The notes under the pieces were generated by a model, which was not told the DNA's origin, did no database searches, and saw only the letters and a program-made list of their open reading frames with translations. This document shows positions 20,861-57,795 of a stretch of DNA of 64,000 nt, piece by piece (position 1 is the first letter of the stretch; each line of letters begins with the position of its first letter). Both the position numbers and the translations under genes were made by a program. The DNA lies in contig JAWMAR010000076.1 of assembly GCA_036785375.1 (NCBI GenBank), positions 7,936,001-8,000,000 of the forward strand, written 5' to 3'. This DNA is from Leucoraja ocellata. Lineage: Eukaryota.

Positions 20861-22454
20861 AGGGTATAGCAATATGGTAAAGATGGGAAAATCTAATGTG
20901 CGGGGCAAGTTTTTTACACAGAGAGTAATGTGGGCCTGGAATGCATTCATCCTCCACAGTGGAACTGTTGGTTTGTTTAGAAAAGTCTCTGTACATATTA
21001 AATTTGCACATTTTTCCTGCAATGTCAATTTTTCTGTGTATCTCTATTTTCCTGTTTCATGCCCTTCGTCCCATTATCACAACAGTTTGGATGCCTATAG
21101 ACAACTCCCATCAAGGTCTTCTGACACTTGCTGCTTGTTAGATTCAACCCTGACTGATTCCCCACCTTTGTGTCTGTCTTTGGTATAAATCAGCATCTGC
21201 AGTTCCTTGCTATTATCTTTAATCTTTCCCAATTCTGACATAGGATCGTTGATCACAAATGTGTACCGTTTCCCTTTTCACAGATGCTCTCCGACCGGCT
21301 GGGTATTTCCATAATTTTGAGATTTAGTTCATGTTTGCAGAATCAGCAGTATCTTGATTTTCGTGGAATGGGAAATGTTGATTAGAAAGGATCAGTTACT
21401 GAAAGCAAACACACAATGGCAGTGAGTGGTTAACAGGGGGAATGTGTTGTGTAGTCTTTATTGAAAGAGGTTAATGCACAATAGGAAGGATATCACAACA
21501 ATTACACAGGGCCATTTTCATTTTCCAACCCAGGGGTATAATTACCAAATGCATAAATTATAATATGTCTGCAGCTTGCTTGCTTATTTCTTTTCATAAC
21601 CTGGGTGGGAAAGGGTCAGGTCTTAGGTAGTTGTTTGTGTCCCAATGTTTCTGCCAAAGAATTTCTTTGAGATAATTTACATTAAACTGGAAAAAGTGCA
21701 GAGATTATTTGCAAGGAGGTTGCCAGGACTCGAGAGACTCAGTTAGAGGGTGAGGTTAGGTAAGCTGGGATTTTTTTTCCTGGAGCACAGGTGATTGAGG
21801 GGTGATCTTATAGTGGTGTCCAAAATCACCAGGGACATAGATAGGATGAGTTCACAGTCTTTTCCCAGGGGAGGGTAATAAAAAAACAGACATCATAGGG
21901 TTAAAATGAGAGGGGAAAAATGCAAAGCGATTAGAGGAGCAACAGATAGTGTTTGCTATATGAAGCATTTTGAGGCAAGTACAATTCAACATTTAAAATA
22001 CATTTGGACAGATACATTGATAGGAAAGTGTTTGAGGGATGTGAGCAAACATGGGAAAATGGGACCAGCTTAGTGCTGTTTGGCTCGATGAATCTTCGTT
22101 TTTGTAGTGGAATACAGATTTTTTTTTTTCCCCATGATCTGTAATTTCCATGATCTATTTGAAAATCTTGCCTGGGTTTGATCTTATAGAATCTGATGAA
22201 TGTTTACCTGCCTGAAACTAACTTGGTTTCTCTCCCCACACGCTGTTCTGAGCTGCTGAGTGTTCCTGGCTTTTGTGTTATTTTCCCTCCTGCCTTTTGC
22301 CTGTATCCCTTTATTGGACCAATAGTTCCCCCCTGGGTAATATTCTCTCTCATTATAGATAATAAAATCTATTGTCGTTAGTTATGAATTTCTTCACACT
22401 TGTTTTTAAGAGAAACATATACGTCAGGCTATTGTTCAATGACTGAGGCACAGC

Positions 22455-23345
22455 GTTCCATCCTGTCCAAACTCAGGGATCGGTGTCTCTGCTCCACCCT
22501 ATTCAACTGGTTGCTCAACTTCCCCATTGGCGGACCTCAGTCAGTGTGTATTGGCAACAATATCTCAACCTCAGTGACCATCAGCACAAGGGCACCTCAA
22601 GGCTGTGTGTTCAAACCCCTGCTCTACCCTCTGTATACCCATGACTGTGTAGCCAGACGCAGCTCCAAAGCCATCTTTAAATTCTCCAATGATACCACCA
22701 TCCTTGGATGAGTAATGGCCAACGCTGAGTCAGGTTACTGGAGGGAGATCGATAATTTAGTGGAATGGTGTCAGAACAAGAATTTTGCTCTCTTTTTCAG
22801 CAAGAAAAAGGAACAGGTTATTGACTCTAGAAGAGAAAGCAGAGGGACTATGCACATGTCCATGTTGGTGGAATGGCAATGGAGAAAGAGTTAAAGGCTT
22901 CATGTTCCTGGGCTTTCACATCTCTGATGGTCTGTCCTGAGCCCAGCGCACTGGTGCAATCTCAAAGAAAGCTCACCAATGCTTCTACTTCCTCAGAGGT
23001 TTGAAGAGATTTGGCACATTGCCCAATACTCTATCAAACCTCCACAAGTGTACAGTGGATAGGTTACTAGCTGGTTGCATCATGGCCTTGTTCAAAAATC
23101 GAATGCTCAGGATTGAAGGAAGCAGCAAAAATCAATTGACATTGCCCAGTCCATCATCGATACTGACCTACACATCTTCGAAGGGAACTACAGGAAGCGC
23201 TGCCTCAAGAAGGCAACTAATATCGTCAAGACACGCACCATCCAGCCCACACTCTCTTCTCACCGCTATCATTGGGAAGCAGGTGCTGGAGCCCGAGAAC
23301 TGTTATCTCTAGGTTCAAGAACAGCTTTTTCTAATCAACCAACAG
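22455..23345 (+). mobile_element. Old Rex1/Babar-like LINE fragment (shared with 53990-54630)
   Basis: RAPQGCVFKPLLYPLYTHDC...IFKFSNDTT. Confidence 0.8.
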
Positions 23346-24025
23346 GTAATTGAATTAATTTGTACATTCTAACCACAACCCTATCTCAGCCGTGAACAGA
23401 CTTTGCACGACTGTGGTTACTTTACATACTTTGACAATGCTTTATCATCATCTAGTTTAGTTAGATAACATAGTGCTCTTGTTGTTGCTGTTCTGACAAA
23501 TCTTTACTATAGAGATACAGCGTGGAATCAACCCCTTTGGCCCACTGAGTACGCGCCAACCAGTGATCACCCCGTACCCTAGCATTATCCCACACACCAG
23601 AGACAATTTAACCGAAGTCAATTAATGTACAAACGTGTATGTTTTTGGTGTGTAGGAAGAAACCAAAATACTCCCACATGATCACACAGAGAATGTACAA
23701 ACTCCGTACAGATTAATGTGCCTAAAGCAAGTAAGAATTTAATTGCTCCAGTCCACTTCCGCCACATATGAAAAATAAACACTTCCCGTTATTATGTCCC
23801 CTTCACACATCTCATTACTTTTCTTCCCTCCATTACATCCACCTGTTTAATCACCACTCTTTCTTGCATTTGCATCATGCATTTCTTTTAGATATGGTTT
23901 GTGAATGCACACGTGTTTCCCATCTTTCTGATATTTCAGCCAAATAATTTGCTCAGAGATAAATCAGAACAGCCTCAGATTACTTCTAAACCACGATTAG
24001 CAAAGCAGTAAAAACAATTGGTATC

Positions 24026-24437
24026 AATAGACAATAGACAATATGTGCAGGAGTAGGCCATTCGGCCCTTCGAGCCAGCACCGCCATTCAATGCGATCAT
24101 GGCTGATCATCCACAATCAGTACCTCGTTCCTGCTTTCTCCCCATATCCCCTGACTCTGCTATCTTTAAGAGCCCTATCTTGCTCTCTCTTGAAAGTATC
24201 CAGAGAACCAGCCTCCACTGCCCTCTGAGGCAGAGAATTCCACAGACTCACAACACTCTTTGTTTCCTCATCTCCGTTCTAAATGCCTTACCCCTTATTC
24301 TTAAACTGTGGCCCCTGGTTCTGGACTCCCCCAACATCGGTAACATGTTTCCTGCCTCCAGCTTGTCCATACTCTTAATAATCTTATACGTCTCAATAAG
24401 ATCCCCTCTCATCCTTCTAAATTCAAGAGTATACAAG
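24026..24437 (-). mobile_element. CR1 LINE 3' fragment, specific to the left arm
   Basis: LYTLEFRRMRGDLIETYK; not present at the paralogous position near 53400. Confidence 0.85.
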
Positions 24438-24629
24438 CATGCTAGGAACTCCAGAGCAGTACACTTCAGTGTCCTTCTCACAGGCAACCAAGAACACAAA
24501 ACATCTCAATTTTAAACAGAAATATTCAACTGTAAAATCTTAGATAAACATCACTGCAATATGTAAATTGAACTTGAAAGCAGATGAAATTAACCCAGAC
24601 TGGGCCACCCATCCTGGGACTGTACTTAC

Positions 24630-24678
24630 CCACTGCACAGAGGGACAGAGTCAAGGTGGAGAATATCAGTGCAAACAT
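24630..24678 (-). CDS. Signal-peptide (leader) exon of gene 1: MFALIFSTLTLSLCAV(G)
   Basis: aacaacATG...GCAGTGG|gtaagt; 49 nt, phase-1 donor compatible with the VJ exon (G+GT=Gly); hydrophobic; 45/49 nt identical to the paralog at 53164. The splice to 12760 is inferred. Confidence 0.85.
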
Positions 24679-25060
24679 GTTGTTAAACTTGGTTTGCAAG
24701 GATTAGACTTTAGTTCATTCAGACCCGATGTTCCCGTTGCTGTTTTAGAAGTGACTGTGTCATCTTCAACTTCCCAACAAGATTGTTTCATCATAATGTG
24801 TGCAATGTAAAGAGGAAGTCATGGGCAAAGTGAGCAGTGGAAACTACTGAAAATACTCTCTCAAACTGTAGGCAGATCACCAGAGTAGTTTTCACCATTC
24901 TCTCTGAATGCATCGACGATGGTCACAGAGGCAGGTTTTAGACAAACCGAGGGCAAATCCTCATGGTCACCCATGATGTTCATGCACATTTTTCAGATTC
25001 AAATGTGGAAACAAAAACTAATTCTCTGATTAATTTTTCTCTTCATTGGGAAAATTTACT
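24679..25060 (-). promoter_or_regulatory. Conserved upstream/promoter region of gene 1
   Basis: Non-repeat sequence conserved with 52790-53163; shared ETS/PU.1-type AGAGGAAGTC (24811-24820) and GGGAAGTT. Confidence 0.5.
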
Positions 25061-26390
25061 CCAGTATTTTGGGAAATTGGGAAGGGCAAGTGACTCCCTA
25101 GTGTTTTTGAGGCCCTCTGAGGGGGCGCTGTAAACAGTTTATGTATGTATTGTTAGGTCAGTGTACCATTGTATGTAGCACATTAGTATCTGCACTGATG
25201 TACAGCACTTTGGTCAACATGAGTTGTTTTTAAATGTGCTATACAAATAAAATTGATTGACTGACTCAGTAGGTGAGGATTTTGGAACAAGCGAACACAG
25301 GTTCTATCTTTAAAATAGTTAAAGAAAAGATAGGGCCCATCTGAATTGGGTCAACTTTAGTATCAGACAGGAACTTGCTAAAGTTGTTTAGAATAGGCTT
25401 TTAAAAGTGTGATGACAAGAATTCAATGTTTGCATATTCCTGTTGGAGTGAAAGGCAAGGCTGGTGGGAGTAAGGAAGCTTGGATGAGGAGAGAAATTGA
25501 GGCTGTCAGGAAGAAGGAGGAGGCAAGGGCCAGGTATAGGGCCTTGGGCTCGTGCACCCCTGGAGGGGTTTTGAGAACTGAGGGGCAGGATTAAAATGGA
25601 AATCAGGAGGGAAACAAGGGGGCAGGGGATAGCTCTGGCAGATAATATAAAATAAAATTGAATTTAATGATTTGAAATAACAAGGAACTTCAGATGCTGG
25701 CTTGTACCAAAGATAGACACCAAATAATGGAGTAAATCAACAGCAGCACTGGAGAAAATGGATAGGTGACATTTCGGGACAGGACCCTTCTTCAGACTGA
25801 CTGCAGAGGGGAGCACAAGAAAAGTGGAAGAGAGAAGAAGGGTTGGAGTGAGTGAGGGCGCCGTTGAGTATGGTTGCCGTGGAGCTTGGGATCTGTCGCC
25901 GAGATCGCCAGTGTTGGAGCTCCGACCAGCGCGGCCTGTGGACTTCAGGACCGCCGTCTCTGGCAGCAAGCGGCCGTTCCAAACACTCTGGAACGGCCAT
26001 CATCCATCATCCATCATCCATCATCCATCATCCATCATCCGGCGAGAGGGCCTGGTACATGCGGCGACTGCGGAGGCCTCAAATAGGCCCCGAGCAAGGG
26101 GCGAACTAGAGGATGAGGACTGGACTTTGTTGCCTTACCTCACAGTGGGAAACATTGCAGGGGGATGTTTTATGTTTGGTGTTAAATTCTTCTTTGGTGT
26201 TGTGCCTTATTTTTATTGGTGTGCTGCAAATGAGAAATTGTGAAGTGGCTGCCGGAAATGAGAGTGAACGCTGGCGCGACTAGCTGCCGCTGCTCTCTCT
26301 CTGAATACTGTAATTTGTTGCAAACTTGTAATTTGTCTGTAAACTTGACTTAACTGTAAGGTGTCCAGCAAGGCGTCCATAAATAAAATA

Positions 26391-26391
<1 letters not shown>

Positions 26392-26478
<87 letters not shown>
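26392..26478. repeat. (ATT)n microsatellite, tail of a retroposon
   Basis: Direct reading; follows AATAAA. Confidence 0.95.
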
Positions 26479-26480
<2 letters not shown>

Positions 26481-26693
26481 ATCACGGCCGGTAACAAATC
26501 AGAGGAGGGGGTTCCCTGATAGGGAGATTGCTGGATAAATGCGGGAGATAGTTTGCAACTATGTATAACCGTTGGGCTCACAACTGCTTCTGTAAAGCTA
26601 GTTTTTAATGAAGACCATTTGATATAGACTATTGCTGGAAGGGGTGGGGGAAAGAAACTGGTGCAAAGTTAGCCAGGATTCAGGTGAAGGGAG

Positions 26694-26901
26694 ACAGACA
26701 CAATGCTGGAGTAACTCAGCGGGCCAGGCAGCACCTCCGGATAGAAGGAATGGTGACGTTTCGGGTCGAGAGCGAGGAATGGTGTCGACCTGAAATGTCA
26801 CCCATTCCTTCTATCCAGAGATGCTGCCTGTCCTGCTGAGTTACCCCAGCATTTTGTGTCCATCTTCGGTGAAAACCAGCATCTGCAGTTCCTTCCTACA
26901 T
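26694..26901. mobile_element. Fold-back Penelope-derived mini-element with 16-bp TSD
   Basis: Inverted arms of the GCTGGAGTAACTCAGC...GTTTCGGGTCGA repeat; flanked by ATTCAGGTGAAGGGAG at 26678-26693 and 26902-26917. Confidence 0.7.
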
Positions 26902-27395
26902 ATTCAGGTGAAGGGAGTGGAGGAGGGGTAAAGCAAGGGGAGAGAGTGAGGGGAGAGGGAAAGGAAGTGGAAGGAAGGTGTTAGGTGTTAGCTAAAGTAG
27001 TTAAAGATTTGATAATTGAGTTGAGTTGAAAAGCTCCAATGGCCGAATGTCCTACTCCTGCACCTATTTTCTATGTTTCTATGTTTCTATGAAATCTGAG
27101 CTTTTTGAAGAAGTGACCAAAAAGGTTGATGAGGGCACAGCCATAGATGCTGGAGGTACTCCAGTATTTTGTGTCTCTGCAGCCACACCCACTTTTCTCT
27201 CTCATTCACATACATCCCTTGCCACCAGCACATCCTCAGCTCTGAGCATATCATTGCTTTTCCACTGAAGCTTTTCCACCACCTGTCCCCCTCCCAGGGG
27301 AGTATTGCCTGGGTGTAAATCTTGGCTCATATTCTCTGCCTCAGGTCAAGTCGAGTGTATTGTGTATCTGCAGATGTACGGTGATGTACAGGTAC

Positions 27396-27937
27396 AGGAT
27401 ACTGAGTTGGATGATCAGCCATGATCATATTGAATGGCGGTGCAGGCTCGAAGGGCCGAATGGCCTACTCCTGCACCTAATTTCTATGTTCCTATGTTTA
27501 CAGCGAACCTCCTCCTTATACTTCATTATTAATGCAATTCCATTTCTTAGGCCTGCTTTTCAGGGTCATAGAAACATAAGAACAGAAAATAGGTGCAGGA
27601 GTAGGCCATTCGGCCCTTCGAGCCTGCACCGCCATTCAATATGATCATGGCTGATCATCCAACTCAGTATCCCGTACCTGCCTTCTCTCCATACCCCCTG
27701 ATCCCTTTAGCCACAAGGGCCACATCTAACCCTCTTAAATATAGCCAATGAACTGGCCTCAACTACCTTCTGTGGCAGAGAATTCCAGAGATTCACCACT
27801 CTCTGTGTGAAAAACGTTTTCCTCATCTCGGTCCTGAAAGATTTCCCCCTTATCCTTAAACTGTGATCCCTTGTTCTGAACAATCTTCCTGCATCTAGCC
27901 TGTCCAACCCCTTAAGAATTTTGTAAGTTTCTATAAG
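27396..27937. mobile_element. Two CR1 3' ends in opposite orientation (27396-27497 +, 27567-27937 -)
   Basis: CR1 3'UTR GGATGATCAGCCATGATCATATTGAATGGCGGTGCAGG on both strands. Confidence 0.85.
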
Positions 27938-28489
27938 GGTCCTACATCTTCCCCTTTTAATTATCCCTTCAGGCAGTTCATCCCTCTCTCGAAGAACCAG
28001 CATGTTGCTGGGACTGGAGCCATACAGAGGCCGAGCATGGTCTGGGTGGCAGATCTTCCCTGGGGCACATGGGTGGGTTTTTATAACAACCCAGTATTTT
28101 CCTAATTACAAACATTGATACCAACCTTTACATTTAAATTTCAGGTTCATGTTATTTATTATCGTTATATACCTCAAGTTAACATCCCCCATGTGGATAT
28201 TAATATACATGTCTCGGGATGAATGGCTCAACTCTCTGGATATCACTCTACTGACCTATCCACAATGTTACTGGGCTCTGGAAGCAGATGAAGAATGAGG
28301 GTGAGAAGCTATTGTGACCAAATGAGGACAGAGTTAGTGCACAATTAATCAGGAGGGAGATCCTCCTAGTGTGGGGGAGGGGAACCTACTGGGAAAGCGA
28401 GTCACCATGAACCATATGAGTTGTACGTGCCTGATGCCAATATGTGTCATAGTCCTGATGAAGCATCTTCTGCATGAGGGGTGAGCAAG

Positions 28490-29052
28490 CATAGACCAGG
28501 CGACCGTTTCCCTGAACACTTGCGCACCAAGGTCTGCTGGAGCTCCCCGTTAGTTATCTTAACTCTCCTTCCCCATCCCATACCGACCTTTCTGTTTTTG
28601 GCTTCTTCTGCTGCTAAAGAGAGGCCACAATCAAACTTGATGAACAGTATCTGATTTTCTGCGTTGGCAGCCTTCTACCTAATCCTATAATTCGCCAATT
28701 AAAAGAAAAAGATCCTCAAACCTTCCTCTCCCCATCCTATTCCCAGTGGCCACACTTTTTCCCACCTCGGTCTTAACATTTCACTCCTACTGTTTCCTTA
28801 TGTGACACACTTTGTCTTCTTTCACCTCTGGCCTTTGTCATTTACTCCACCCATCTGCATATCAGCTCTCCTCAGCTATCACTTGCCAGGCTGTGCCCCA
28901 TCCCAACGTCTCTTCTCCCCCTACTCCATCAGTCTGAAGAAAGGTCCCGACCTGAAATGTCGTCTGTTCATTTACCTCCACAGGTGTTGCCTGACCAACT
29001 GAGTTCCTCCAGCACTTTGTTTTCTGTTCACGATTCCACCATCTGCAGTCTC
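28490..29052 (+). mobile_element. Penelope-like element 3' relic (GIY-YIG C-terminus and terminal repeat)
   Basis: Degenerate GDRFPEHLR...SPSPSHTDLSV...KLDEQYLIFCVGSLLPN, followed by CTGAAGAAAGGTCCCGACCTGAAATGTC. Confidence 0.7.
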
Positions 29053-29102
29053 TCATGGTCCCATGCTTTGTATGACAGTGGATGAGTGTGCAGGATACTC
29101 AC

Positions 29103-29120
29103 ATTTTGGTCCATGGTGGC
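29103..29120 (-). CDS. Candidate first coding micro-exon end (Kozak + M-D-Q-N + donor)
   Basis: Minus strand GCCACC ATG GAC CAA AAT|GTGAGT in apparently unique sequence. Confidence 0.35.
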
Positions 29121-29194
29121 AAGTGTGGAGATGGTTGAACTGATCAAAGGGAATTTGACAGTCACCCACTCGACAGAGGTTGTGGACTTTGGGC

Positions 29195-29381
29195 TGAGAG
29201 GAACTGCATGCGGTTGCCAGCGAGCCCTCAGTGTGGGGAAGTGAGACTGTGGTTATTGAAAGCGTGCAGGTATTACACACCAGGAGAGTAGAAGCACGTT
29301 TATGTGGCATTGAACCAAGAAATGCGGTAGAGGAACGGAACGACATATAGAGCATTGTGACTCCATGTGTAGCTTTGTGGT
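29195..29381. promoter_or_regulatory. Candidate lymphoid promoter/enhancer (RUNX + ETS motif cluster)
   Basis: TGCGGT 29209, GGAAGT 29237, TGTGGTT 29248, TGCGGT 29323, GAGGAA ~29330, TGTGGT 29376; motif evidence only. Confidence 0.3.
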
Positions 29382-29499
29382 AAAAATGGGAAATATAAAC
29401 CTAGGAGGAAAGGCTTTACAAATATAAAAGGCATAGAAACAAAGTGTACTGGAGGAAGTTACGGTTTGAATTTCAAATCCATCGTTGAGTTCAACTTCT

Positions 29500-29796
29500 T
29501 AGTTTAGTTTAGAGATACAGCGTAGTAACAAGCCCTTCAGCTCACCGAGTCCGCGCCGACCAGCAATCCTAGTACACTATAGCACTATACTACACGCTAA
29601 GGACAATGAACAATTTTCACAGATGCCAATTAACCTATAAACCTGTACGTCTTTGGGGTGTGGGAGGAAACCGGAACAACCGAGGTAAATCTGCAGGTCA
29701 CAGGAAAAACATACAGATTCCATACAGACAAGCACCCCTAGTCGGGATTGCGCCCTAGTCTCTGGCGCTGTACGGCAGCAACTCTACTGCCGCGCC
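29500..29796 (-). mobile_element. HE1-like V-SINE
   Basis: Reverse complement of GGCGCGGCAGTAGAGTTGCTGCC...CTCTAAACTAAACT. Confidence 0.85.
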
Positions 29797-30389
29797 TCCG
29801 TCTCTCACATCAGAAGAGAAGAGAAGGCGCAAGACAGGGGTCATAGGTAATAGATGTACCAAGGACAGGATGATGGGGAAACTGGACTCTGGTGGGAGAG
29901 GTGAAGGTGAAGACAAAGGCTGGAGGGTGATAATTAGGGGGACAAAGACTACAATCTGATCAGTAAGGAAGGTGACGAGGGAGAGGGAAAGGGTAGATGG
30001 AATCAGATGAGGGATGGGATCCAGGGGGGAAATGTATAGGGAGCAGGTTTGGAGGCATGTGTCTGTGCTGCATAAATCTGTGACACTGTCCGTGAATCGA
30101 TTTGTTCTGCTGATCTGATCCTCAGCCTTAGCTAAAGAATGCAACAATGTGGATCCTGGTGTGTTAAAGGTCAGAGCTACATAGCTGCAACATCCTGCAA
30201 CATCCAGTGGAATATCAGCACCAATCAGTGGAATATTTACACCAGTTATTGGCCGATTTAGGCTATTGGCCGATTTAGGCATTCTGTGGGTGAGCAGGCC
30301 CGGGCAGACTCATTGGCATTGGTCCAGAAATGTGCCCGGTCTCTGTGATTGGTGGTAATGGGATTACCTGCCACATCCTTTACAAACAT

Positions 30390-30596
30390 GTGTTCAAGAA
30401 GGAACTGCAGATGCTGGTAGATCAAAGGTTCACAAAAATGCTGGAGAAACTCAGCGGGTGCAGCAGCATCTATAGACCGACGGAAATAGGCGACGTTTCG
30501 GGCTAAAGATGGGTTTCGGCCCGAAATGTCACCTATTTCCTTCGCTCCATAGATGCTGCTGTACCCGCTGAGTTTCTCCAGCACTTTTGGGTACCT
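30390..30596. mobile_element. Fold-back Penelope-derived mini-element with 14-bp TSD
   Basis: Inverted arms; flanked by TCCTTTACAAACAT at 30376-30389 and 30597-30610. Confidence 0.7.
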
Positions 30597-31453
30597 TCCT
30601 TTACAAACATTCCTTGTTGGTAATACCATAGAAACGTAGAAACATAGAAAATAGGTGCAGGAGTAGGCCATTCGGCCATTCAATATGATCATGGCTGACC
30701 CTTAAACTCCAGGCAGTATTCTGGTGACCATGTCTGCATCCTGTTCAAAGCCTCCACATATTTTCGGTAATGAAGCAATCAAAACTGCCCACAATACAAT
30801 AAATGCGGAAAGTTTTACATACTGTAAAATCAACATGGTTGTCATTGTGCGTGATTTTAACTTCCCCAACATTGATTCAGACTTCCTTAGTGCTGGAGGC
30901 TAGAGGCTTAGATGGGGCAGTGTTTGTTAGGTGCAATCCAAGAGGGTTTCTTGAAACAGTGTGTGTCCAACTTGAGGTGTGACCATACTGGAACTTGTCC
31001 TGGGAAGTTATCCTGGCCAGGTGACTTGGATGGATCGCAGTGGGAGAGCATTTTAGGAACAAAGATCATAAGTTTTAAAATAGTTATGAATAAAGATAAG
31101 TCTGGACCGTGCGGCAAGGTACTAAATTGGGGTACTGCAAATTCTAACTTTTTTAGTCAGCAACTCGGGAGAGTAAATTTCCTCTGGGTGCTCCGGATTC
31201 CTCCAACATCCCAAAGATGTGCGGGTTTGTAGTTTAATTGTCCTCTCTAAATTGCCTCCCAGTGTGTAAATGATGGATGAGAAAATGGGATTACATTGAA
31301 CTAGTGTGAATGTGTGATCAATGGTCAGCATGGACATGGTGGGCCGAAGGGCCTGTTTCCCTGCTGTGTAATTAAATCAATTCAATCAATCATATTCAAT
31401 CATCTTTAACTAAAGTCCTCTAATCACAGTAAATCAACTGAGGAAGATGGAAC

Positions 31454-31762
31454 TAGTTTAGTTTAGTTTAGAGATACAGCGCGGAAACAGGCCTCTCAGC
31501 CCACCGGGTCTGCACAGACCAGCGATCACCACACATTAACACTATCCTACACACACTAGGGCTAATTTACACTTATACCAAGCCAATTTATCCACATACC
31601 TGTACGCATTTGGAATGTGGGAGGAAACCGAAGATCTCGGAGAAACCACACGCAGTCACGGGGAGAACATACAAACTTCGTACAGACAGCACCCGTAGTC
31701 GACATTGAAACCAGGTCTCCACATGCTGTAAAGCAACAATTCCACCACTGTGCCACCGTGCT
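31454..31762 (-). mobile_element. HE1-like V-SINE
   Basis: Reverse complement of GCACGGTGGCACAGTGG...; (TTTAG)n tail. Confidence 0.85.
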
Positions 31763-32602
31763 GTCCTTCTCTGCACACTTTCCAGCATAATCACATCCTT
31801 CCTATAATGTGGTGACCAGAATTACACCTGGTACTCCAGATGTGGCCTTACCGATGTTTGTAAAAGTTGAAACATAATCTTCCAACAATTATAGTCAATA
31901 CACTGATCTAGGAAGGCAAGGATGCTATATGCTTTCTTCAACTATCCTAACCAAGTGTGGTGGCACTTTCAAGTAACAATGGACTTGAAATCTTTGGTCT
32001 CTTTGTTCTTTGTTCATCAACAAATTTTAGTGCCGTCATTTATTGCTTTTGTCCGACACGTATTTGACTTTCCAAAATGTATCATCTTGCACTTGCCTGA
32101 ATTAATTTCCATCTGCCAATACTCTGCCCAACATTTCATTTAATCTCTATCCTGCTATAATCATATACAACCTTCCTCACTATCAAGAACACCGTACGAG
32201 CAAATGGAAAGGCCACACGGAGTTGGGTGCACTCTATAACATATTCAGTGAAATTCCTGAAACTTGGATGGTGTCACTGCTGCATTCCATGTCTTTACAT
32301 TTAGGCTTTGTCTGTGGTTCACTGTCAACATGTTAGCACAATTCACTTCCCTATTTACTAGTCATTTGCCTTCACTATTCTTTCCCCTACAAAAGCCCCC
32401 CACCTCTCCATCCCTCACCCATTTCTAGGTCTTTAGACTAGGGTCACCAATAGAGCCAAAAGATTAGATCCCTAACAGCACCCTTGTTTGGTCTATTGAA
32501 CGACTATCCCCCTAACGCCAACGCATAATCTGCTGCTGCAGTTCCCACACTAAAATAATGTCATTAAAATCAGCTGTACAACAATGATAATGTGGGAAAT
32601 GC

Positions 32603-32885
32603 AGGTGCAGCGGTAGAGTTGCTGCCTTACAGTGCCAGAGACCCTAACTACAAGTGCTTGCCTGTACGGAGTTTGTACATTTTCCCCGTGACCTGCATGG
32701 GTTTTTCCCGGTTGTCTGGTTTCCTCCCACATTCCAAAGATGAACAGGTTTTTAGGTTAATTGGCTTCAGTGAAAATTGTAAATTGTCTCTAATGTGTAG
32801 GATTGTGCTGGTGTACAAGGATTGCTGGTTGGCGGAGACTCGGTGAGCCGAAGGGCCTCTTTCTGCGTTGTATCTCTAAACTATA
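32603..32885 (+). mobile_element. HE1-like V-SINE
   Basis: GGTGCAGCGGTAGAGTTGCTGCC...TTTCCTCCCACATTCCAAAGA...TATCTCTAAACT. Confidence 0.85.
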
Positions 32886-33074
32886 CAAAGAAGTTGAAAT
32901 TCAAACCATTACTATATTTCACTTGCCAGGTTTTACCCCATCCCTACTGCATTTTTCTAGCGTTCTCCTTCCTACTCCATATGTCTGAACATGGGCCCCA
33001 ACACAAATCGTCCATCCACAGATGCTGCCTGAGCCAGTAACTTTTTCCAGCACATTTTGTTTCTAGATTTTTTA

Positions 33075-47500: not shown

Positions 47501-48310
47501 ACAATTTTAACATTACATCCCAGCTTCTATACTCAATGCTCTGATTTATAAAGGCTAGTATACCAAAAGCTTTCTTTACCACCCTATCTATATGAGATTC
47601 CACCTTCAAGGAACTATGCACGGTTATACCCAGATCCCTCTGTTCAACTGTATTCTTCAATTCCCTACCATTTACCATGTACGTCCTATTTTGATTTGTC
47701 CTGCCAAGGTGTAGCACCTCACATTTATCAGCATTAAACTCCATCTGCCATCTTTCAGCCCATTTTTCCAAATGGCCTAAATCACTCTGTAGACTTTGGA
47801 AATCCTCTTCATTATCCACAACACCCCCTATCTTGGTATCATCTGCATACTTACTAATGCAATTTACCACACCTTCATCCAGATCATTGATGTACATGAC
47901 AAACAACAAAGGATCCAACACAGATCCCTGAGGCACCCCACTAGTCACCTGCCTCCAACCCGATAAAAAGCCATCCACCATTACCCTCTGGCTTCTCCCA
48001 TTCAGCCACTGTTGAATCCATCTTGCTATTGCTGCATTTATACCCAACAGTTGAACCTTCTTAACCAACCTTCCATGAGGAACCTTGTCAAAGGCCTTAC
48101 TAAAGTCCATATAGACAACATCCACTGCTTTACCCTCGTCAATTTCCCTAGTTACCTCTTCAAAAAATTCAAGAAGATTAGTCAAACATGACCTTCCAGG
48201 CACAAATCCATGTTGACTGTTCCTACTCAGACCCTGTTTATCTAGATGCTTATATATATTATCTCTAAGTATCTTTTCCATTAATTTGCCCAGCACTGAA
48301 GTCAAACTTA

Positions 48311-49608
48311 TGGCTAGTTTTCACGGGGCGACTTGACGCAAGATGTAGCCAGAGTGGAGTGGTCGTGGTCTAGCACGATATCACACGATATAACGGGGGT
48401 AGAGTAAAGAGTTCCCACGGTACTCGGCAATTCTGTCATTTTTGCGAGTGACTTGTCCGTCTCCCGATCTTTCCCGTTAATCGTGAATGAACATCGTGGA
48501 CTGTAGTGTAGTTAATCACGTGGCACAAATGATGTTACTTTGTGTCACACACTATATTGGTTTTTTTCACCCGAGCTCTTTAATGAGCTGAAGAATAATC
48601 TGTGTTTTTTTAGACAAATGTTGTTTGGTGTGATGCACCTTCTCTCAATATGTGCAATAAGTCGTCTTTTTATTTTGTCAAATATGAATAAAGACTGTGT
48701 CTCACATTGACCGTGATGATTGTGTTATTTTATGATCTACTGAGAGGTGAAACTTTCAGTCTGAAGAAGGCTCTCGACCCGAAACGCCACCCGTTCCTTC
48801 TCTCCAGAGATGCTGCCTGTCCCGCTGAGTTGCTCCAAGCAACTGGTGTCTATCTTCAAAGGACTGACCAGGACTGCCTCTCTCTCTCTCTCTCTCTCCC
48901 TCCCTCCCTCTCACACAGGCATGACTGGAGGAACTCCGCGGGCCAGGCAGCATTTACGGAGGGAAATGGACAGGCGACCCATTCTTCAGGCTGCCTTATG
49001 TCTCTCTCCCCCCCCCCCTCCCCCCAACTCCCACCCACACACACGAATGCTGGAGAAACTCAGCGGGTGCAGCGGGGCCGAAACGTTGTCTATTTCCTTC
49101 ATTCCATAGATGCTGCTGCACCCTATGAGAGATAAGGCAGCCTGAGGAAAGGCTAGCCTGTCAATTTCCCTCCGTAGATGCTGCCTGGCCCGCGGAGTTC
49201 CTCCAGTTAGAAACTGCTTTCAGACAAAAAGAGACACACTGACATTAATGAAATGCTTGTTAGCTAGTTTTATTAGATTTGTATGTAAATAGCAAACTGG
49301 CTGGATTCACTCTATCCAACTTCCGGGTTCACCGTTCGCAGGAGTTCCCACGGTGACCGCAAGAGCTACTACGGATATCGCACTGGCCACTACGTTCATA
49401 AAATGTTGCAATGCTCAACCACAAGTGTACAAGTCACTCTTGGACAAATTCAAACATGTTTGAATTTTCTCCCGAGTACCCAAGTTACACGATTACCTGC
49501 CGTTAGCCCCACGGTGGTCCACGAATGCCGTACTGTTACCGCACGAGGTTCCCACGATGTTAAACTCTGGTTACCTCTTGCGTCAAGTCGCCCCGTGAAA
49601 AGGGGGTT
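48311..49608. mobile_element. Non-autonomous PIF/Harbinger-like DNA transposon
   Basis: ~40-bp TIRs TTTTCACGGGGCGACTTGACGCAAGA...; inserted at a TAA of the CR1 (flanks TTA/TAA). Confidence 0.75.
48761..48788 (+). ncRNA. Penelope-type minimal hammerhead-like motif (related copies at 52200, 28934, and ~25767-25796 minus)
   Basis: Consensus CTGAAGA-AGGG-TCTCGA-CCC-GAAA-CGTC; each copy has substitutions. Confidence 0.45.
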
Positions 49609-50381
49609 TAACAGGTCAATAATTGCTAGGTTTACTCTTAGAACCCTTTTTAAACAATGGAACAACATGCGCAGTACGCCAATCCTCGGGGACTATTCCC
49701 GTTTCTAATGACATTTGAAATATTTCTGTCATAGCCCGGCTATTTCTACACTAACTTCCCTCAATGTCCTAGGGAATATCCTGTCAGGACCTGGAGACTT
49801 ATCCAATTTTATATTTTTCAAAAGTGTCAGTACTTCTTTTACTTTGAACCTCATAGTATCCATAGCTACTCTGCTAGTTTCCCTTACCTCACATAATTCA
49901 ATATCCTTCTCCTTGGTGAATACCGAAGAAAAAAAATTGTTCAATATCTCCCCCATCTCTTTTGGCTCTGCAGATAACTGTCCACTCTGTCTCTCCAATG
50001 GACCAATTTTATCCCTCGTTATCCTTTTGCTATTAATATAGCTGTAGAAACCCTTTGGATTTACTTTCACCTTAAAGCAACCTCATATCTTCTTTTAGCT
50101 TTTCTAATTTCTTTCTTAAGGTTCTTTTTACATTCCTTATACTCCTCAAGCACCTCATTTACTTCATGCTGCCTATAATTATTGTAGATTCCCTGGCTTT
50201 TGACCATGCCTGAGTCTTTGCTTCGGTTTGTATTGTTTTTAATGTTTCTTTATTTTACATACTTTTCCTACTATTTCTTTTGATTGTTATTATTGGTGTG
50301 TATTAACTTTTTTGTCAATGATTAGTGATGTACAGCGCTTTGTTGCAACTATGATTGTTTTTAAAGTGCTCTATAAATAAA

Positions 50382-50416
<35 letters not shown>

Positions 50417-52789
50417 GAATGCTCCATATAATTTGGTGGGTCTTTGCACAGCCATAGCCCCATTTATTTAGAATAACATAATTGATAGTGCATTTATTTC
50501 TTGTTGTAGCTGTGTGTCGGAAGCTGCAGCAAGTAAGAGTTTCACTGTTGCAGTTCATTTCTGGTTTCTTGACTCCTGGTAAAGAAGGTCTACCATATAC
50601 TTGGCATCATTGACCAGGACATTGAGTGTAAAAGCTGGCAATCATGTTGCAGCTAGCATGAAACTTTGGTTGGGCACAGTTGTTTGTGCAGTTCTGGTCA
50701 CCACATTACAGGAATGATGTGGCGGCTTTGAAGACGTTGTAGAAGATGTTTACTAGAATGCTGCCTGGGCATTAGTTATCTGGCGAGGTTGCATAAATGT
50801 GGACTGTTTTCTCTAGCGCATCCGAGGCTGAGGGGCAATCTAATGGAACATTTATAAAATTCTGAGGCAGAGTACATTTATGTCTGAGGAAACCTATTCT
50901 CTCACTAGTTACCCTCTTTCCTTTAATGTACTTTTGGACTCGAGTCATAGTGTTACACAGGACAGAAATAGGTCCTTCAGTGAAGTCTAAATTTACCAAG
51001 TTGACCACAAGATGTCCCATCTGCACTACTTCCACTGGCCCAGACTTACCCTAGATCTCTCTAAAACTTTCCTATCAATGTATCTGACCAAATGCATTCT
51101 AAATGCAGTTATTGTACTTGCCTTGACTACCTTTTCTGTCAGATCGTTCCTTATATCCACCATCCTCTGTTTGAAAACGTTGCCCCTCAGTTTTCTATTG
51201 AATCTTTCCTCTCTCGTCTATGTCCTCTGGTTCTTGATACCCCAACTATGGGTAAAAGACTGAGCATTCACACTACCTATCCCCTTCATGATCCTATAAA
51301 TCTCTATAAAATAATCCCTCGGCCTCCTGGGCTCCAAGGAATAAAGTCCTGGCCAGCCCAAACTCTTGTTATAGTTAGGGCCTTCAAGTTGTGACAACAT
51401 GTTTATACATCTCCTTTGCACACTTTCTCGCTTAACAATATTCTTACTGTAACAAATTAATTATCTTCACTATCTATGAAATCAGCCATTTTAGTGTCAC
51501 TACAAACTCACTAATCATGCCTTCTACATTCTCAGCCAAATCGTTGAAATAAACTGCACAGCAATGGGCACAGCACCGATCCCTGGAACACACCACATAG
51601 ACTTCCAGTCCGATATACAACCTATCACCATCACCCTCTGCTGCCTTCCATGAAGCCAATTTTTTATCCAGTTGATTAACTCTCCCTGGATCTCATATAA
51701 TCTAAATTCCAGAGCAGTTTACCATGAAGAACCTAATCAAATCCTATGCTGAAGTTCATATGGACATATGTAGAAACCGGCAACTGCAGATGCTGGTTTA
51801 CCAAGGAAATACACAAAATGCTAAACTAACTCCACCAATTATGCCTTTGCACTCAAAAACCTTTTTGGTTAATTCTTCAAAAATTTCAACTCAACTGAAT
51901 TTTCAAATCTTTAACTTCTAACTTCAGGTAACGTCTACAAACACTTTCCTTCCCTCTCCACTTTCTCTCCCCCCACCCTCTTAACACTCTCCCCTCCCCT
52001 TACTTCCCACTCCTTCCCCCCTTACAACAAAAGTCCTTCAACTGTTCGCAACCATGTTTCCCTTTGGGGCTGAAACCTGCTTCTATCTCTCCAACAACCT
52101 GCCTATCAGGGAACCCACTCGCCTGAGGTCATCTGTTACCGGCTGTGAATTGTCCAGCCCCCTCTTCTACTTTTTTTCGGCCTCCACCCTGCAAAAAGTC
52201 TGAAGAAGGGTCCCGATCTGAAACGTCACCTATCCATTTTTTCCAGACACTTCCTGACCTACTGAGTTACTCCAGTATTTTGTGTCTATCTTTGGTATAA
52301 ACCAGCAACTGCAATGCCTTGTTCTTTCAAACCTTTAAACTCAATTTTCTTTAATATTATCTGCCAGATGTGTCTCCTGTCCCCTTATTTCACTCCTGAT
52401 TTCCTTCTCAATCCTGCTCCTCAGTTCTCAAAACTGCTCGAGGGATGCACAATCTTTGCTGCCTATACCTGGCCCTTGCCTCCTCCTTCTTCCTGACAAC
52501 CTCAACTTCTCTCCTCATCCAAGCTTCCTAACTCCCACCTGCTTTGCCTTTCACTCCAACAGGAATTGGCAAACCCTGAACACTTTTTATCACACTTGTA
52601 AAAGCCTATGCTAAGCAACTTTAGCAAGTTCCAATCTGATACCAAAGGTCGCCTTGCCCCAATTCAGAATTGTAACTAGTGGACCAACCCTGTGGTTATC
52701 CATAACTATTTTAAAGCTAATAGACCTGTGGTCGCTGGTCCCAAAAGGCTCGCCAACTTACACTTCAGTCACTTGCTCTTCCCAATATT

Positions 52790-53163
52790 CCTAATAAAAA
52801 GCGAAAATTAATCAGAGGATTTGGTTTTGTTCCAACATTTGAATCCGAAAAATGTGTATGAACATCAGGAGTGCCTATAAGGATTGACCCTCAGAACATC
52901 TAAAACTTGCATCTGTGACCATATTCGATGCATCCAGAGAGAATGGTGAAAACTACTCTGGTGATCTGCCTACAGTTTGAGAGTAAATTTTCAGTGGTTT
53001 CCACTGCCCACTTTACCCATGACTTCCTCTTTACACTCCACGCATTTGCGATGAAACAATCGTGTGGGGAAGTTGAAGAGGACACAGTCACTTGTAATAC
53101 AGCAACGGGAACATCGGGTCAGAATGAACTAAAGTCTAATCCTTGCAAACCAAGTTTAACAAC
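52790..53163 (+). promoter_or_regulatory. Conserved upstream/promoter region of gene 2
   Basis: Inverted paralog of 24679-25060; GACTTCCTCT at 53021-53030. Confidence 0.5.
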
Positions 53164-53212
53164 ATGGCTGCACTGATATTCTCCACATTGACTCTGTTCC
53201 TCTGTGCAGTGG
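53164..53212 (+). CDS. Signal-peptide (leader) exon of paralogous gene 2: MAALIFSTLTLFLCAV(G)
   Basis: aacaacATGG...GCAGTGG|gtaagt; inverted paralog of 24630-24678. No downstream V exon seen before 64000. Confidence 0.8.
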
Positions 53213-53989
53213 GTAAGTACAGTCCCAGGATGGGTCACCCAGTCTGGGTTAGTTTCATCTGCTTTCAAGTTCAATTTACATATTGCAGTGATGTGTGTCT
53301 ACAATTTTACAGTTGAATATTTCTGTTTAAAATTGAGATGTTTTGTGTTCTTGGTTCTCTGTGAGAAGGACACTGAAGTGTACTGCTCTGGAGTTGCTAC
53401 CAAGCATGGATATCAATTTGTTTCACTGCTTTGGTAATCAAGGTTCAGAAGTCATCTGAGACTGTTCTGATTAATCTCTGAGCAAATTATTCGGCTGAAA
53501 TGTCAGAAGATAGGAAACACCTGTACATTTGCAACCCATATCTAAACGAAATGCATGATACAAATGCACAGAAGAGTGGAGATCAAACAGGCAGATGTAA
53601 TGGAGGGATGAAAAGTAATGAGATGTGTGAAGGATATATAATAACGAGAAGAGTATTTATTTTTCATATGCGGCGGAAGTGGACTGGAGCAATTAAATTC
53701 TTACTTACTAGCTTTAGGCACATTAATCTGTACAAAGTTTGTACATTCTCTGTGTGACCATGTGGGATTTCTCCGAGTGCTTTGGTTTTTTCCTACACTC
53801 CAAAAACATACACGTTTGTATATTAATTGGATTTGGTAAAATTGTAAATTGTCTCTCGTGTGTACAGGGAGGTCACTGGTTGGCGCGTACTCAGTGGGCT
53901 AAAGGGGTTGATTCCACGCTGTATCTCTATAATAAAAATTAGTCGGAACAGCAACAACAAGTGTGCCATAACTTATCTAACTAAACTAG

Positions 53990-54630
53990 ATGATGATAAA
54001 GCATTCCCGATGATAGCAGTGAGAAGAGAGATTGGGCTGGATGGTGTGTGTCTTGAACATATTAGCTGTCTTCTTGAGGCAGCCCTTCCTGTAGTTCCCT
54101 TCGATGATGTGGAGGTCAGTATCGATGATGAACTGGGCAATGTCCACTGCTTTTTGCTGCCTCCTTAATTCCTGAGCATTTAAATTTTCAAACAAGGTCA
54201 TCATCCAACTAGCTAGTAACCTGTCCACTGTACAATTGTGGAGGTTTGATAGAGTATTGGGCAACGTGCCAAATCTCCTCAAACCTCTGAGGAAATAGAA
54301 GCATTGGTGAGCATTCTTGTGATTGCACCAGTGCGCTGGGCTCAGGACACTCAGAGATGTGAAAGCCCAGGAACATGAAGCTTTTAACTCTTTTAACATG
54401 AGAATTAAAAAATGGTTTTGGAGCTGCGCTGGCTACACAGTTACGGGTATACAGAGGGTAGAGCAGGGGTTTGAACACACAGTCTTGAGGTACCCCTGTG
54501 CTGATGGTCAAGGAGGCGGAGATATTGTTGCCAATACATTCTGACTGAGGTCCGCCAATAGGGAAGTCAAGCAAGCAGTTGAATAGGGTGGAGCAGAGAC
54601 CCAGATCCCTGAGTTTGGACAGGATGATGG
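53990..54630 (-). mobile_element. Old Rex1/Babar-like LINE fragment, paralog of 22455-23345
   Basis: FPIGGPQS...GVPQDCVFKPLLYPLY; FGTLPNTLSNLH. Confidence 0.8.
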
Positions 54631-54737
54631 CGTTGAATGCTGTGCCTCAGTCAATGAACAATAGCCTGAAGTATATGTTTGCATTAAATCCAGTGTGAAG
54701 AATATCAAATCTAATGACAAAAGATTTTATAAATCTA

Positions 54738-56286
54738 CTAGACCAAGTGCAGACCCGTTGGGTCTGTTCCCCCAACGTGTGGTTGTGGGGGGGGGGGGGG
54801 GGGAGGCGGCATGCAGCGTCACACACACTAGCTATCCCCCCCCCGGCACTCACGCTAATTATCCCCCTTGATATTATATTAATATTATTATTATTTTGCT
54901 CCTTTTACTCCATAACCACTCTATCTACTGACGCATAGCCCCCATCTTGCAGTCACATCTAGACAGGTCGGGGGGGGGGGGGGCGAGGGTAGAGAGTGAG
55001 GGCAGAGAGAGAAGGGGCAGATACAGAGAGAGAGGGGAGGAGAGGGAGAGGGTGAGAGTGAGGGGGAGAGAGAGGGGGTGCTGAGAGGGGGTGGGGTGAG
55101 GGGGAGAGGTGGGGAGCAAGGAGGGGGAGGGAGGGGAGAGGGTGGAGGGAAAGGGTAGAGGGTGTGGAATGGAGGGGGTTTAGGGGAGCGAGGGCGAGGG
55201 AGGGGATGGAGGGGAGGAGGGGGAGAAAAAGAGGGGAGAGAGAGAGAGGGATGGGAGGGAGAGGAGAGGGGGGAGAGGAGAGGGGAGAGGAGGGGGAGGA
55301 GAGGGGGGAGAGGAGAGGGGAGGAGTGGAGAGGGGGGGAAGAGGAGGGGGGGCAAGAGGAGAGGGGGAGGGAGAGGAGAGGAGAGGGGGAGGTAGAGGAG
55401 GGGGGAGAGGAGGGGCATAGAAGAGGGGGGAGAGGAGGAAGGGAAGAAGAGAGGGGGAGGAGAGGGGGGAGGGGAGAGGGTAGGGAGGGGGGAGGGGAGA
55501 GGAGTGAGAGGAGAGGCGGAGAGGGGGGGAGAGGAGATAGGAGAGGAGAAAGGGGGGAGAGAGGAGAGGGGGGAAGAGGAGAAGGGGGTGAGAGGAGGGG
55601 GTGAGAGGAGGGGGAGGGAGAGGAGAGGGGGGAGAGGATAGGGGGGGTAGAGGAGCGGGCGGTAGTAGAGGGGAGGAGAGGAGAGGAGAGAGGGGGGAGA
55701 GAGGTGAGGGGGAGGAGAGTGGGTGGGGGGAGAGGAGAGGGAGGAGAGAGGAGAGGGGGAGAGAGGATGGGAGAGAGAGAGAGAGAAAGGGAGAGAGACA
55801 GGGGGGAGAGAGAGAAAGAAAGAGGGATAGGGAGAGAGAGAGAGAGAGAGAATGCCTTTTTACTCAACCCAAACCCCCCCCAAAACAACCATTTGCAGGC
55901 AGTGCTTTTTTCCTCAAACTAACCATAGCCATATTTTCATTTTCAAACCAAATTAAGGGTACTTACTCACAGCTGTGTAGACATTTGTTCAGTCATTCAG
56001 AGCTCAGACCTCCATGTTGTAGAGACTGATAGGGGCACACCACTTGCTGGTTTTATAGTCCCTCCCCCTGCCGCCAGCGGGGGCAGCAGAGAGAATGGGG
56101 AATTTTGTAAAATCATTAATATCTCTGTCATTTTTCATCAACGGGAAAAATCCTTGGCACACATATGGCGGAGGGGGACTCTGAGCAAGGTGGCCAAAAA
56201 TGATGGTCGTAGGTGGCGGCGTTCACTCAGAAATTGCAGCACAGAATGCCAAAACCGGTCAAGAACAGACTTTTAGTAATATAAGA
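54738..56286 (-). mobile_element. Non-autonomous Helitron
   Basis: Minus strand A|TCTTATATTAC...CAGACCC-AAC-GGGTCTG hairpin, 8 nt, CTAG|T; no TSD; empty site present in the paralogous arm (~22341-22380). Confidence 0.9.
54968..55852 (+). repeat. Polypurine (GA/GGA-rich) low-complexity tract inside the Helitron
   Basis: Direct reading. Confidence 0.95.
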
Positions 56287-57084
56287 TTAGGAGAGAGAAC
56301 ATTGGCCAGAGAGGAATTTTGGCCAAATAAAGAGATTCAGGCAAAAGACTGCAGAGGCAGGAAAGATAATAACACAAAAGCCAGGAACACTCAGCTGCTC
56401 AGAGCTGCGGGTGGGGAGAGAAACCTAGTTAGTTACAGGCAGATTAACATTCATCAGATTCAATAAGGTCAAACCCAGGCAAGATTTTCAAATAGATCAT
56501 GGAAATGACGGATCATGAAGAGAAATTCTGTATTCGACAACAAAAACTGACAGATTTTAACATACAGCGTAAAGAGTCATAGTCATACAGTACGGAAATG
56601 GGCCGTGTCGGAAGGAACTGCAGATACTGGTTTAAACCGAAGATAGACACAAAAAGCTGGAGTAACTCAATGGGTCAGGCAGCATCTCTGAAGAAAAGTA
56701 ATAGGTGCCATTTTGGGTCGAGACCCTTCTGCAGATTGAGAGTGTGGGGAATGGGAAACGAGAAATATAGATGGTGATATGGAGAGATGTAGAACTAGGA
56801 TCAGTCAGTGCTGACCAAGATGCCCTAACTAACCTAGTCACATTTGCCCATGTTTGTTCACATCCCTCAAACCGTTTCCTATATGTGTTTGTCCAAATGC
56901 CTTATAAATGTTGAATTGCACATGACTCAAACACTTCCTCTGGCAGCATGTTCCATGTACAAAACACCACCTACAGGCCCTTCTACTTCCTATTAAATTA
57001 TTCCCCTCTCACTTTAAACTTATGCTCTCTTGTTTTTGTTTACCCTCCCCTGGGAAAAAGACTGCATGCTTTCATCTTATCTAT

Positions 57085-57795
57085 GAAACATATAAGATTG
57101 TTGAGGGTTTGGACACGCTAGAGGCAGGAAACATGTTCCCGGTGTTGGGGGAGACCAGAACCAGGGCCACAGTTTAAGAATAATGGGTAAGTCATTTAGA
57201 ATGGAGATGAGAAAACACTTTTTCTCACAGAGACTTGTGAGTCTGTGGAATTCTCTGCCTCTGAGGGCGGTGGAGGTCGGTTTTCTGGATACTTTCAAGA
57301 GAGAGCTAGATAGGACTCTTAAAGATAGCGGAATCAGGGGATATGGGGAGAAGGCAGAAACTGTGGCCCCTGGTACTAGACTCTCCCAAAATCGGGAACA
57401 TGTTTCCTGCCTCTAGCGTGTCCAAACCCTTAAAAATTGTATATGTTTCAATAAGATCCCCACTCCTTCTAAACTCCAGAGTGTACAAGCCCAGCCGCTC
57501 TATTGTCTCAGCATGTGACAGTCCCGCCATCCCGGGAATTAACCTTGTAAACCAACGCTGCCTTCCTCAATGGCAAGAATGTCCTTCCTCAAATTAGGGG
57601 ACCAAAACTGCACACAATACTCCAGGTGTGGTCTCACTTGGGCCCTGTACAACTGCAGAAGGACCATTTGCTCCTATACACGACTCCTCTTGTTATAAAG
57701 GCCTACATGCCATTCGCTTTCTTCAATGCCTGCTATGCCTGCATGCTTACTTTCATAGACTGATGAACAAGGACCCCCAGATCCCATTGTACGAC
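57085..57795. mobile_element. CR1 3' fragments in inverted arrangement
   Basis: 57085-57357 plus and 57358-57795 minus, overlapping RT C-terminal sequence. Confidence 0.8.

Follow-up and report, generated by a model that had tools for sequence, protein, structure and literature searches.

Divergent receptor genes with ready-joined VJ domains and opposite signalling tails in the skate Leucoraja ocellata, probable members of a paired activating/inhibitory family

The stretch of DNA analyzed here, hereafter the window, comprises 64,000 nucleotides of Leucoraja ocellata (G000:C76:7936001-8000000, where C76 is contig JAWMAR010000076.1; C5 denotes another contig of the same genome) and contains the 5′ ends of two divergently transcribed genes, C and D, which encode putative receptors with immunoglobulin (Ig) domains. 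Self-BLAST of the window revealed ten colinear reverse-complement blocks (21836-27174 versus 57085-51811) with an identity of 87.2% over 3192 gap-free columns. The left arm (21836-27174, minus strand) comprises the promoter, the leader and the start of intron 1 of gene C, and the right arm (51811-57085, plus strand) the same elements of gene D. The leader exons of gene C (24630-24678, minus strand; 49 nt with a phase-1 donor, matching the N-terminus of RefSeq model P0006) and gene D (53164-53212, plus strand) are identical at 45 of 49 nucleotides, both retain the ATG and the GTAAGT donor, and 28,486 bp separate the two start codons. The original prediction of inverted arms (about 21840-27150 and 51840-57085) with conserved leaders, belonging to receptor paralogs some 28 kb apart, is borne out by these data. 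The spacer (27175-51810) consists to 68% of further copies of local repeats, and inspection of its open reading frames (ORFs) of at least 110 aa by eye disclosed no host gene.

Apart from both leaders, the window contains the first V exon of gene C (V1; 12410-12760, minus strand), for which a structure model with a predicted local distance difference test score (pLDDT) of 92.6 shows the fold of an antibody V domain; sequence and fold searches of the PDB returned antibody V domains only and were uninformative on the family. Two more V exons, the transmembrane (TM) exon and three tail exons of gene C follow to the left of the window (C76:7932088 down to 7921059, minus strand), and six V exons, the TM exon and the tail of gene D lie to its right (C76:8012353-8044343, plus strand). 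The first V exon of D begins 23.1 kb past its leader and 12.4 kb beyond the window. Since the VJ exon expected downstream of 53212 is thus present at C76:8012353, the leader of D is not an orphan. On C76 the exons of both genes are open and have compatible splice phases; on C5 one Vb exon of gene D carries a 1-nt frameshift. All Ig exons are V-set domains according to Pfam, begin and end in phase 1 and include their own J-like G strand, and neither a C1 nor an I domain was found in any exon of the gene cluster. V and J lie within one exon, without the recombination-signal split of rearranging antigen receptors, and the sole heptamer-like match is located within a Va coding sequence.

The two genes differ in their tails. 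Gene C is organized as leader-V1-Va-Va-TM-DYENI-YMDL(x7)YGHI and gene D as leader-V1-Va-Vb-Va-Vb-Va-TM-ILYADI-TEYAAI, with V1 domains that are identical at 84% of the amino acids. The tail of C holds an ITAM (immunoreceptor tyrosine-based activation motif) of the form YxxL/I-x6-8-YxxL/I, whose core YMDL-x7-YGHI is interrupted by a phase-0 intron after Y-M, i.e., within the first YxxL, and such an intron is described as characteristic of ITAMs (PMC5112662). The tail of D is of the inhibitory type (ITIM, immunoreceptor tyrosine-based inhibitory motif; ITSM, the corresponding switch motif), and its TEYAAI fits the ITSM consensus given in PMC5112662. The comparison of tails that had been proposed therefore yields opposite types, ITAM on the minus-strand gene and ITIM/ITSM on the plus-strand gene, and the pair has the architecture known from paired activating/inhibitory receptors. 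The anticipated paired receptor system stands in this anatomical respect; the charged TM residue envisaged for it does not, as the TM segment of C is uncharged and activation would use the intrinsic ITAM. We consider it likely that C and D belong to a paired family of immune receptors and signal in opposite ways, C as an activating and D as an inhibitory member.

A V-exon search combined with annotation of 444 kb placed both genes in a cluster of five, A(+), B(+), C(-), D(+) and E(+), in which C is the only inverted gene. A and B share the C-type tail with its ITAM and E shares the D-type tail, so that the C/D pair stands at the border between both groups; the ITIM exon, for which the genome holds four matches, is confined to D and E. 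Because C5 is colinear with C76 in long blocks (98.0% over 253 kb), we treat it as the inferred second haplotype. Four copies of the leader region are present on each of the two contigs; a leader of gene A was not found by blastn. V exons are broken in A and in B. Gene A (C76:7837113-7844323) has a divergent V1, a stop inside the second V and a Glu in the TM segment, and gene B (C76:7881478-7894211) has two broken V exons and a V-exon number that differs between C76 and C5.

The composition of the cluster bears on the origin of the arms. All of B, C, D, and E possess their 5′ block, in which C resembles E (90.8% and 89.4%) no less than D (89.5% and 84-89%). In the intron that precedes V1, similarity is 95-97% among B, D, and E and 81-85% between C and these three. 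The introns of the 3′ half and tail of C are homologous to those of B and A (82-91%) and have no match in D. Because the block is shared by four genes and alignments of the tail of C extend to B and A but not to D, the arms are, as far as the alignments tell, the surviving 5′ ends of older whole-gene paralogs, with C as the older, inverted lineage: a whole-gene duplication would have come first, and C would later have been inverted or inserted in reverse. A discrete, pair-specific inverted duplication of about 5 kb as the origin, as originally proposed, was rejected in view of the copies in B and E and the tail introns of C. It is highly improbable that such an event made the pair and that a bidirectional control region serves both genes or their products heterodimerize. 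The arms do exist and flank the leaders symmetrically, V1 sites are shared specifically by C and D (see below), and V1 keeps the J-like FGxG motif used by V-V dimers, all of which would suit this scenario; each gene, however, has its own promoter copy, 28 kb from the other, and in the Va domains R replaces the J phenylalanine.

The leader and promoter had also been thought better conserved than the relics of transposable elements nearby. Promoter plus leader of C and D are 88.3% identical (377/427) compared with 90.2% (642/712) for a relic of a long interspersed nuclear element (LINE; p = 0.32), and the core from -120 to +248, at 93.0%, exceeds all downstream intron blocks pooled (p = 0.004) but not significantly the LINE relic (p = 0.14); this part of the prediction was dropped. 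A purine box resembling a PU.1/Ets site lies within a block that is invariant in 8/8 leader copies. It is located about 141 nt upstream of the ATG of gene C (24809-24819) and again upstream of gene D (53022-53032). The 11-mer occurs only twice in the window, and four of its five occurrences in the 444 kb region sit at leader promoters. The presence of the PU.1-like box at all eight leaders therefore hints at expression of the cluster genes in myeloid or B cells. In RefSeq models of related species, V1 is preceded by this leader and the tails are likewise the same; in a 668-nt contig of run X1, the TM exon is followed immediately by the DYENI exon, with the borders as predicted.

The V1 exon, which encodes the tip domain, is unusually variable. 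Between the likely alleles it differs by 5.7-8.8% within flanks that are 96-99% identical, compared with 0.9-3.5% for the other V exons and 0-2.3% for the tail exons. The mean pairwise ratio of nonsynonymous to synonymous substitution rates (dN/dS) amounts to 2.23 in V1, as opposed to 0.54 in Va and 0.71 in Vb. Variable residues occupy 16 of 24 positions in loops resembling complementarity-determining regions (CDRs), defined from the structure model as the BC, C′C′′ and FG loops, and 21 of 89 positions elsewhere (p = 1.5e-4). Character states which C shares only with D outnumber those shared only with B/E by 13:1 in the V1 exon, compared with 3:5 in the 5′ intron (p = 0.011). Furthermore, V1 of C on C76 is 94.9% identical to V1 of D on the other haplotype, while the two D alleles are 91.2% identical, and this cross-haplotype C/D pair contains an identical tract of 80 nt (Bonferroni p = 0.034). 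A test of the pairwise homoplasy index (PHI) type gave p of about 0.003-0.004 at windows 30 and 60. Homogenization of the V1 exon between members with opposite tails was found in this way, though not for every pair or window. The V1 sites shared specifically by C and D therefore suggest gene conversion of V1 between the two genes, as in CEACAM and SIGLEC11/16, and it is likely that selection diversifies the V1 tip and that conversion keeps it similar in both genes. Across six species, the V1 of ITAM-type proteins is nearer to the V1 of ITIM-type proteins of the same species than to that of ITAM-type proteins of other species in eight of nine cases, which fits concerted evolution of the tip domain, a pattern reported for paired receptors (PMC3210942, PMC5112662).

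The likeness of V1 might also be explained by birth and death within one multigene family, in which the inversion of C would be accidental and recent duplication or unequal crossover together with purifying selection, and not a maintained pairing, would account for the similarity of V1. Gene B joins a D/E-like V1 intron (95%) to an ITAM tail, so that hybrid genes do arise by crossover, and A and B carry broken V exons. We nevertheless regard this explanation as rather doubtful, since the synonymous divergence of V1 between C and D (about 5/86 sites) is below that of the 5′ intron (47/310; p = 0.029), the 13:1 pattern of shared sites is limited to the V1 exon, and sharks and rays alike retain both tail types, their V1 domains being grouped according to species.

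Several observations weigh against the reading of C and D as a pair with opposite signals and matched tips. In the tails, gene C has N in place of the D/E at Y-3 of the strict ITAM consensus (D/E is found in 7 of 24 ITAM-type homologs), ILYADI of gene D ends in I and falls outside the strict L/V consensus for ITIMs, and the exon of gene C after YGHIQ is not fixed. The dN/dS of C versus D amounts to only 1.0-1.4, and the pooled V1 changes (67 replacement, 13 silent) are marginal at p = 0.046 with non-independent pairs. Significant tracts are absent from C76/D76 of the same haplotype (p = 0.12) and from D76/C5 (p = 0.94), and the PHI-type test loses significance at window 100 (p = 0.13). C76/E5 has a significant tract as well (Bonferroni 0.028), so that exchange is not confined to C and D. 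For the Va domains, no more than 10 of 17 cases follow the same-species pattern. The standing of C5 as second haplotype is drawn from its 98% colinearity. Regarding expression, which was looked up for the exons of gene C, run X1 stems from another organism or strain (about 93% alike) and its nature as RNA is no more than a guess; the RNA run X12 covered these exons at a depth of at most 1.5, with none in the TM bin and with first mates on a single strand, and is too sparse to be of use.

If C and D do act as a pair of opposite receptors, the following mechanism can be proposed from their domains. D would bind a self ligand and recruit SHP-type phosphatases via its ITIM/ITSM, leading to inhibition, and C would recruit Syk-type kinases via its own ITAM, leading to activation, with its YxN site possibly serving GRB2-type adaptors. 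With these different partners, C could act as a decoy or counter-receptor when a pathogen exploits V1 of D, the V1 domains being the part that would bind ligand under pathogen pressure. The inverted orientation of C might allow its V1 exon to exchange tracts with that of D, by which the tips would stay matched.

The closest homologs of the cluster proteins are those of skates. A profile search yielded 122 proteins; the named ones among the 120 listed are all from sharks and rays and bear automatic names only. The named homologs (n = 125, 22 species) comprise 24 of the ITAM type and 50 of the ITIM/ITSM type, and charged residues are absent from the TM segments of all ITAM-type family members. 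Of the 22 shark and ray species in this sample, 13 have both tail types, one has ITAM only and eight have ITIM only; the tail-type count leaves out P0018, P0020-P0022, and P0128. In Callorhinchus, V domains and multi-V models were found and signalling tails were not recovered from the 1.84 billion representatives searched. C and D are apparently members of an unnamed shark-and-ray family with tandem, ready-joined VJ domains; no published description of it was found by full-text search, in which several key papers were not covered, so that one may exist. As a separate observation, five proteins of carpet sharks and a catshark (P0028, P0057, P0097, P0101, P0092) join an inhibitory-type TM and first tail exon to ITAM exons, which suggests tail swapping by exon shuffling.

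Among the top 150 matches from the same representatives, the best V matches outside the family are sigma-2 light chains followed by other V-C1 chains, with up to 125 bits per domain; one cluster member among these best outside matches is named Igsigma-2. The family V domains have a mean identity of 37-46% to sigma-2, 25-32% to lambda, and 25-31% to T-cell receptor alpha/delta. In a V tree of 82 rows and 116 columns, constructed without SIRP, NITR, NKp30, UrIg, and NCR3, the family grouped with sigma-2, other V-C1 chains and a row labeled by us as CD8beta-like (83/86). Sigma-2 formed a clade of its own (100/99) in which the family V domains are not nested, and an origin from an extant sigma-2 gene of skates was rejected for this reason. 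Monophyly of the family was neither supported nor rejected (24% of bootstrap trees; p of the approximately unbiased test 0.48). That the genes represent undescribed innate paired receptors found throughout the chondrichthyans, derived from a joined VJ exon of the sigma-2 type or from an unsplit VJ ancestor, is put forward tentatively. The genome also contains germline-joined VJ-C light-chain genes (C94:6734330, C230:195603, and clusters on C384 and C531; L125-L128), of which the C94 and C230 loci are sigma-2-like with a C1 exon and those on C384 and C531 consist of dozens of lambda-like copies.

Alternatively, the genes might be the cartilaginous-fish orthologs of a named family, e.g., SIRP, NITR, pIgR-like or MDIR, that merely lack annotation. 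Automatic NCBI names point in this direction, as ‘tyrosine-protein phosphatase non-receptor type substrate 1-like’ is given to four shark homologs and ‘polymeric immunoglobulin receptor-like’ to several. The absence of C1 and I domains from the cluster exons stands against it, as do the top 150 outside V matches, which are led by sigma-2/V-C1 chains and in which TM-bearing proteins reach at most 49 bits. SIRP is syntenic with NSFL1C, a SEP-domain gene, and with PDYN; in the present assembly, which is in contigs, SEP-domain matches were obtained only on C14, C667, and C904 and none on C76 or C5, and no opioid precursor motif was detected in the 444 kb region. NITRs likewise have single-exon VJ domains and paired tails, and the preprint describing them cites a lack of evidence for NITRs in cartilaginous fish (bioRxiv 2021.06.11.448072). 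On balance, an identity with one of these families appears unlikely.

Some further features of the locus may be mentioned. The younger, arm-specific transposable elements of the original prediction were recovered at their places. A 3′ fragment of a CR1 LINE (24025-24438, minus strand) lies in intron 1 of gene C on both C76 and C5, and the matching site of the B, D, and E copies lacks it. Intron 1 of gene D contains a non-autonomous Helitron-like insertion (54738-56286, minus strand) whose ends read A^TC and CTAG^T and whose CAGACCC/GGGTCTG hairpin is placed some 12 nt from the 3′ end; it was labeled according to the end rules of Helitrons, and its insertion site is intact (empty) in gene B. 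About 2 kb of this intron on C76, including the left end of the element, are missing from the C5 allele. A GC-rich, island-like stretch in intron 1 of gene C (16650-17450), with an ATG followed by a short Leu run, is possibly an alternative promoter, or else a repeat; RefSeq models P0008 and P0016 of another skate use an alternative first exon. By eye, the intron after V1 of gene C holds fragments resembling DIRS or long terminal repeat (LTR) retroelements (1053-4700) and a long reverse-transcriptase frame of an L2/Rex-type LINE (4817-6202).

To the right, the cluster is flanked by genes for a DUF4772 family protein, a PAG/LIME1-like adaptor, a PAQR-type receptor, and stathmin (C76:8134600-8194716 and 8378000); the matching human block may be either 20q13 or 8q21. 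On the left flank, a Pfam scan of 237 of the 248 candidate flank ORFs detected no host gene. A distant member of the family is encoded 430 kb away (C76:8539466-8550094, also C5:871890-876900; L077, L078, L123). Its divergent V exon is followed by a Va-type domain that runs on as an open frame of 1988 aa, rich in Asn/Ser/Gly repeats like a giant mucin-type stalk, and a similar fragment exists in Chiloscyllium (P0127).

Few descriptions of paired receptor families exist for sharks and rays, and there is interest in single-exon VJ genes for what they may reveal about how antigen receptors arose (PMC12227049). The present family is old, with V relatives in a chimaera and both signalling types kept across sharks and rays, and among the top hits, an Ig light-chain isotype is the nearest match to its V domains. 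It therefore offers a testable candidate for the step from a joined Ig gene to a new non-rearranging receptor (PMC2193156). The variable V1 loops would point to a ligand under host-pathogen conflict. Should the tentative derivation from a joined or unsplit VJ exon hold true, the genes would directly exemplify how an exon of an antigen receptor was turned into a germline-encoded on/off sensor of pathogens, in which CDR-like loops are diversified by selection and gene conversion instead of RAG.

Several known systems can be set beside this family. SIRP, skate MDIR, and hagfish APAR are activating/inhibitory families of the Ig superfamily; SIRP and APAR possess VJ-type V domains and APAR genes occur in facing pairs, C1 domains are present in SIRP (V-C1-C1) and I/C2-set domains in MDIR, and the activating members rely on charged residues of the TM segment. 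By these descriptions all three are set apart from the skate genes, in which neither C1 or I/C2-set domains nor a charged TM residue were seen: C and D have no C1 exon and the RefSeq models are V-only, and with regard to MDIR, a comparison by description only, the domains are V-set according to Pfam and the ITAM-type members have no charged TM residue. The NITRs of ray-finned fish resemble the skate family in their non-rearranging single-exon VJ and in having activating and inhibitory members, and are described as V plus I domain; the skate proteins have 2-6 V domains, no membrane-proximal I domain with extra cysteines, and an ITAM in the tail (bioRxiv 10.1101/2021.06.11.448072). The Ig sigma-2 chain (sigma-cart, type I or NS5) has the same joined VJ exon and split leader with 4 residues in the V exon. 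In contrast to sigma-2, no C1 exon follows VJ in the skate family, its V domains fall outside the sigma-2 clade, and its proteins are membrane-bound with signalling tails and a very short CDR3-like loop. UrIg/UrIg2 and NCR3 of sharks also have a single-exon VJ, UrIg2 with the split leader of antigen receptors; UrIg is characterized as a secreted VJ-C1 protein linked to MHC or Ig/TCR loci (PMC12227049), unlike the skate cluster beside DUF4772, PAG/LIME1-like, PAQR, and stathmin genes.

The head-to-head layout itself is a known pattern, seen in CEACAM and SIGLEC11/16. The N domains of CEACAM are not VJ-type and C2-like domains come next, whereas the skate ectodomain consists entirely of tandem VJ domains with a two-cysteine, antigen-receptor-like fold. 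As portrayed in PMC5112662, CEACAM pairs (Xenopus ceacam301/303; human CEACAM1/3) share with the skate genes the combination of ITIM/ITSM and intrinsic-ITAM members in opposite orientation, conversion limited to the N-terminal V exon under diversifying selection, an ITAM split by a phase-0 intron, and an extra YxN motif. SIGLEC11 and SIGLEC16 are likewise a head-to-head inhibitory and activating gene with a common upstream region and first exons and with gene conversion; according to PMC5701461 they lie at a distance of 9 kb, share 97-99% identity across some 2 kb, and activate in the DAP12 manner. The skate pair differs by its distance of 28 kb, the 87% identity of its arms, the intrinsic ITAM, its place in a five-gene cluster, and the apparent limitation of exchange to the V1 exon. 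The family represents a familiar type of system, its unusual trait being an ectodomain made of VJ domains throughout.

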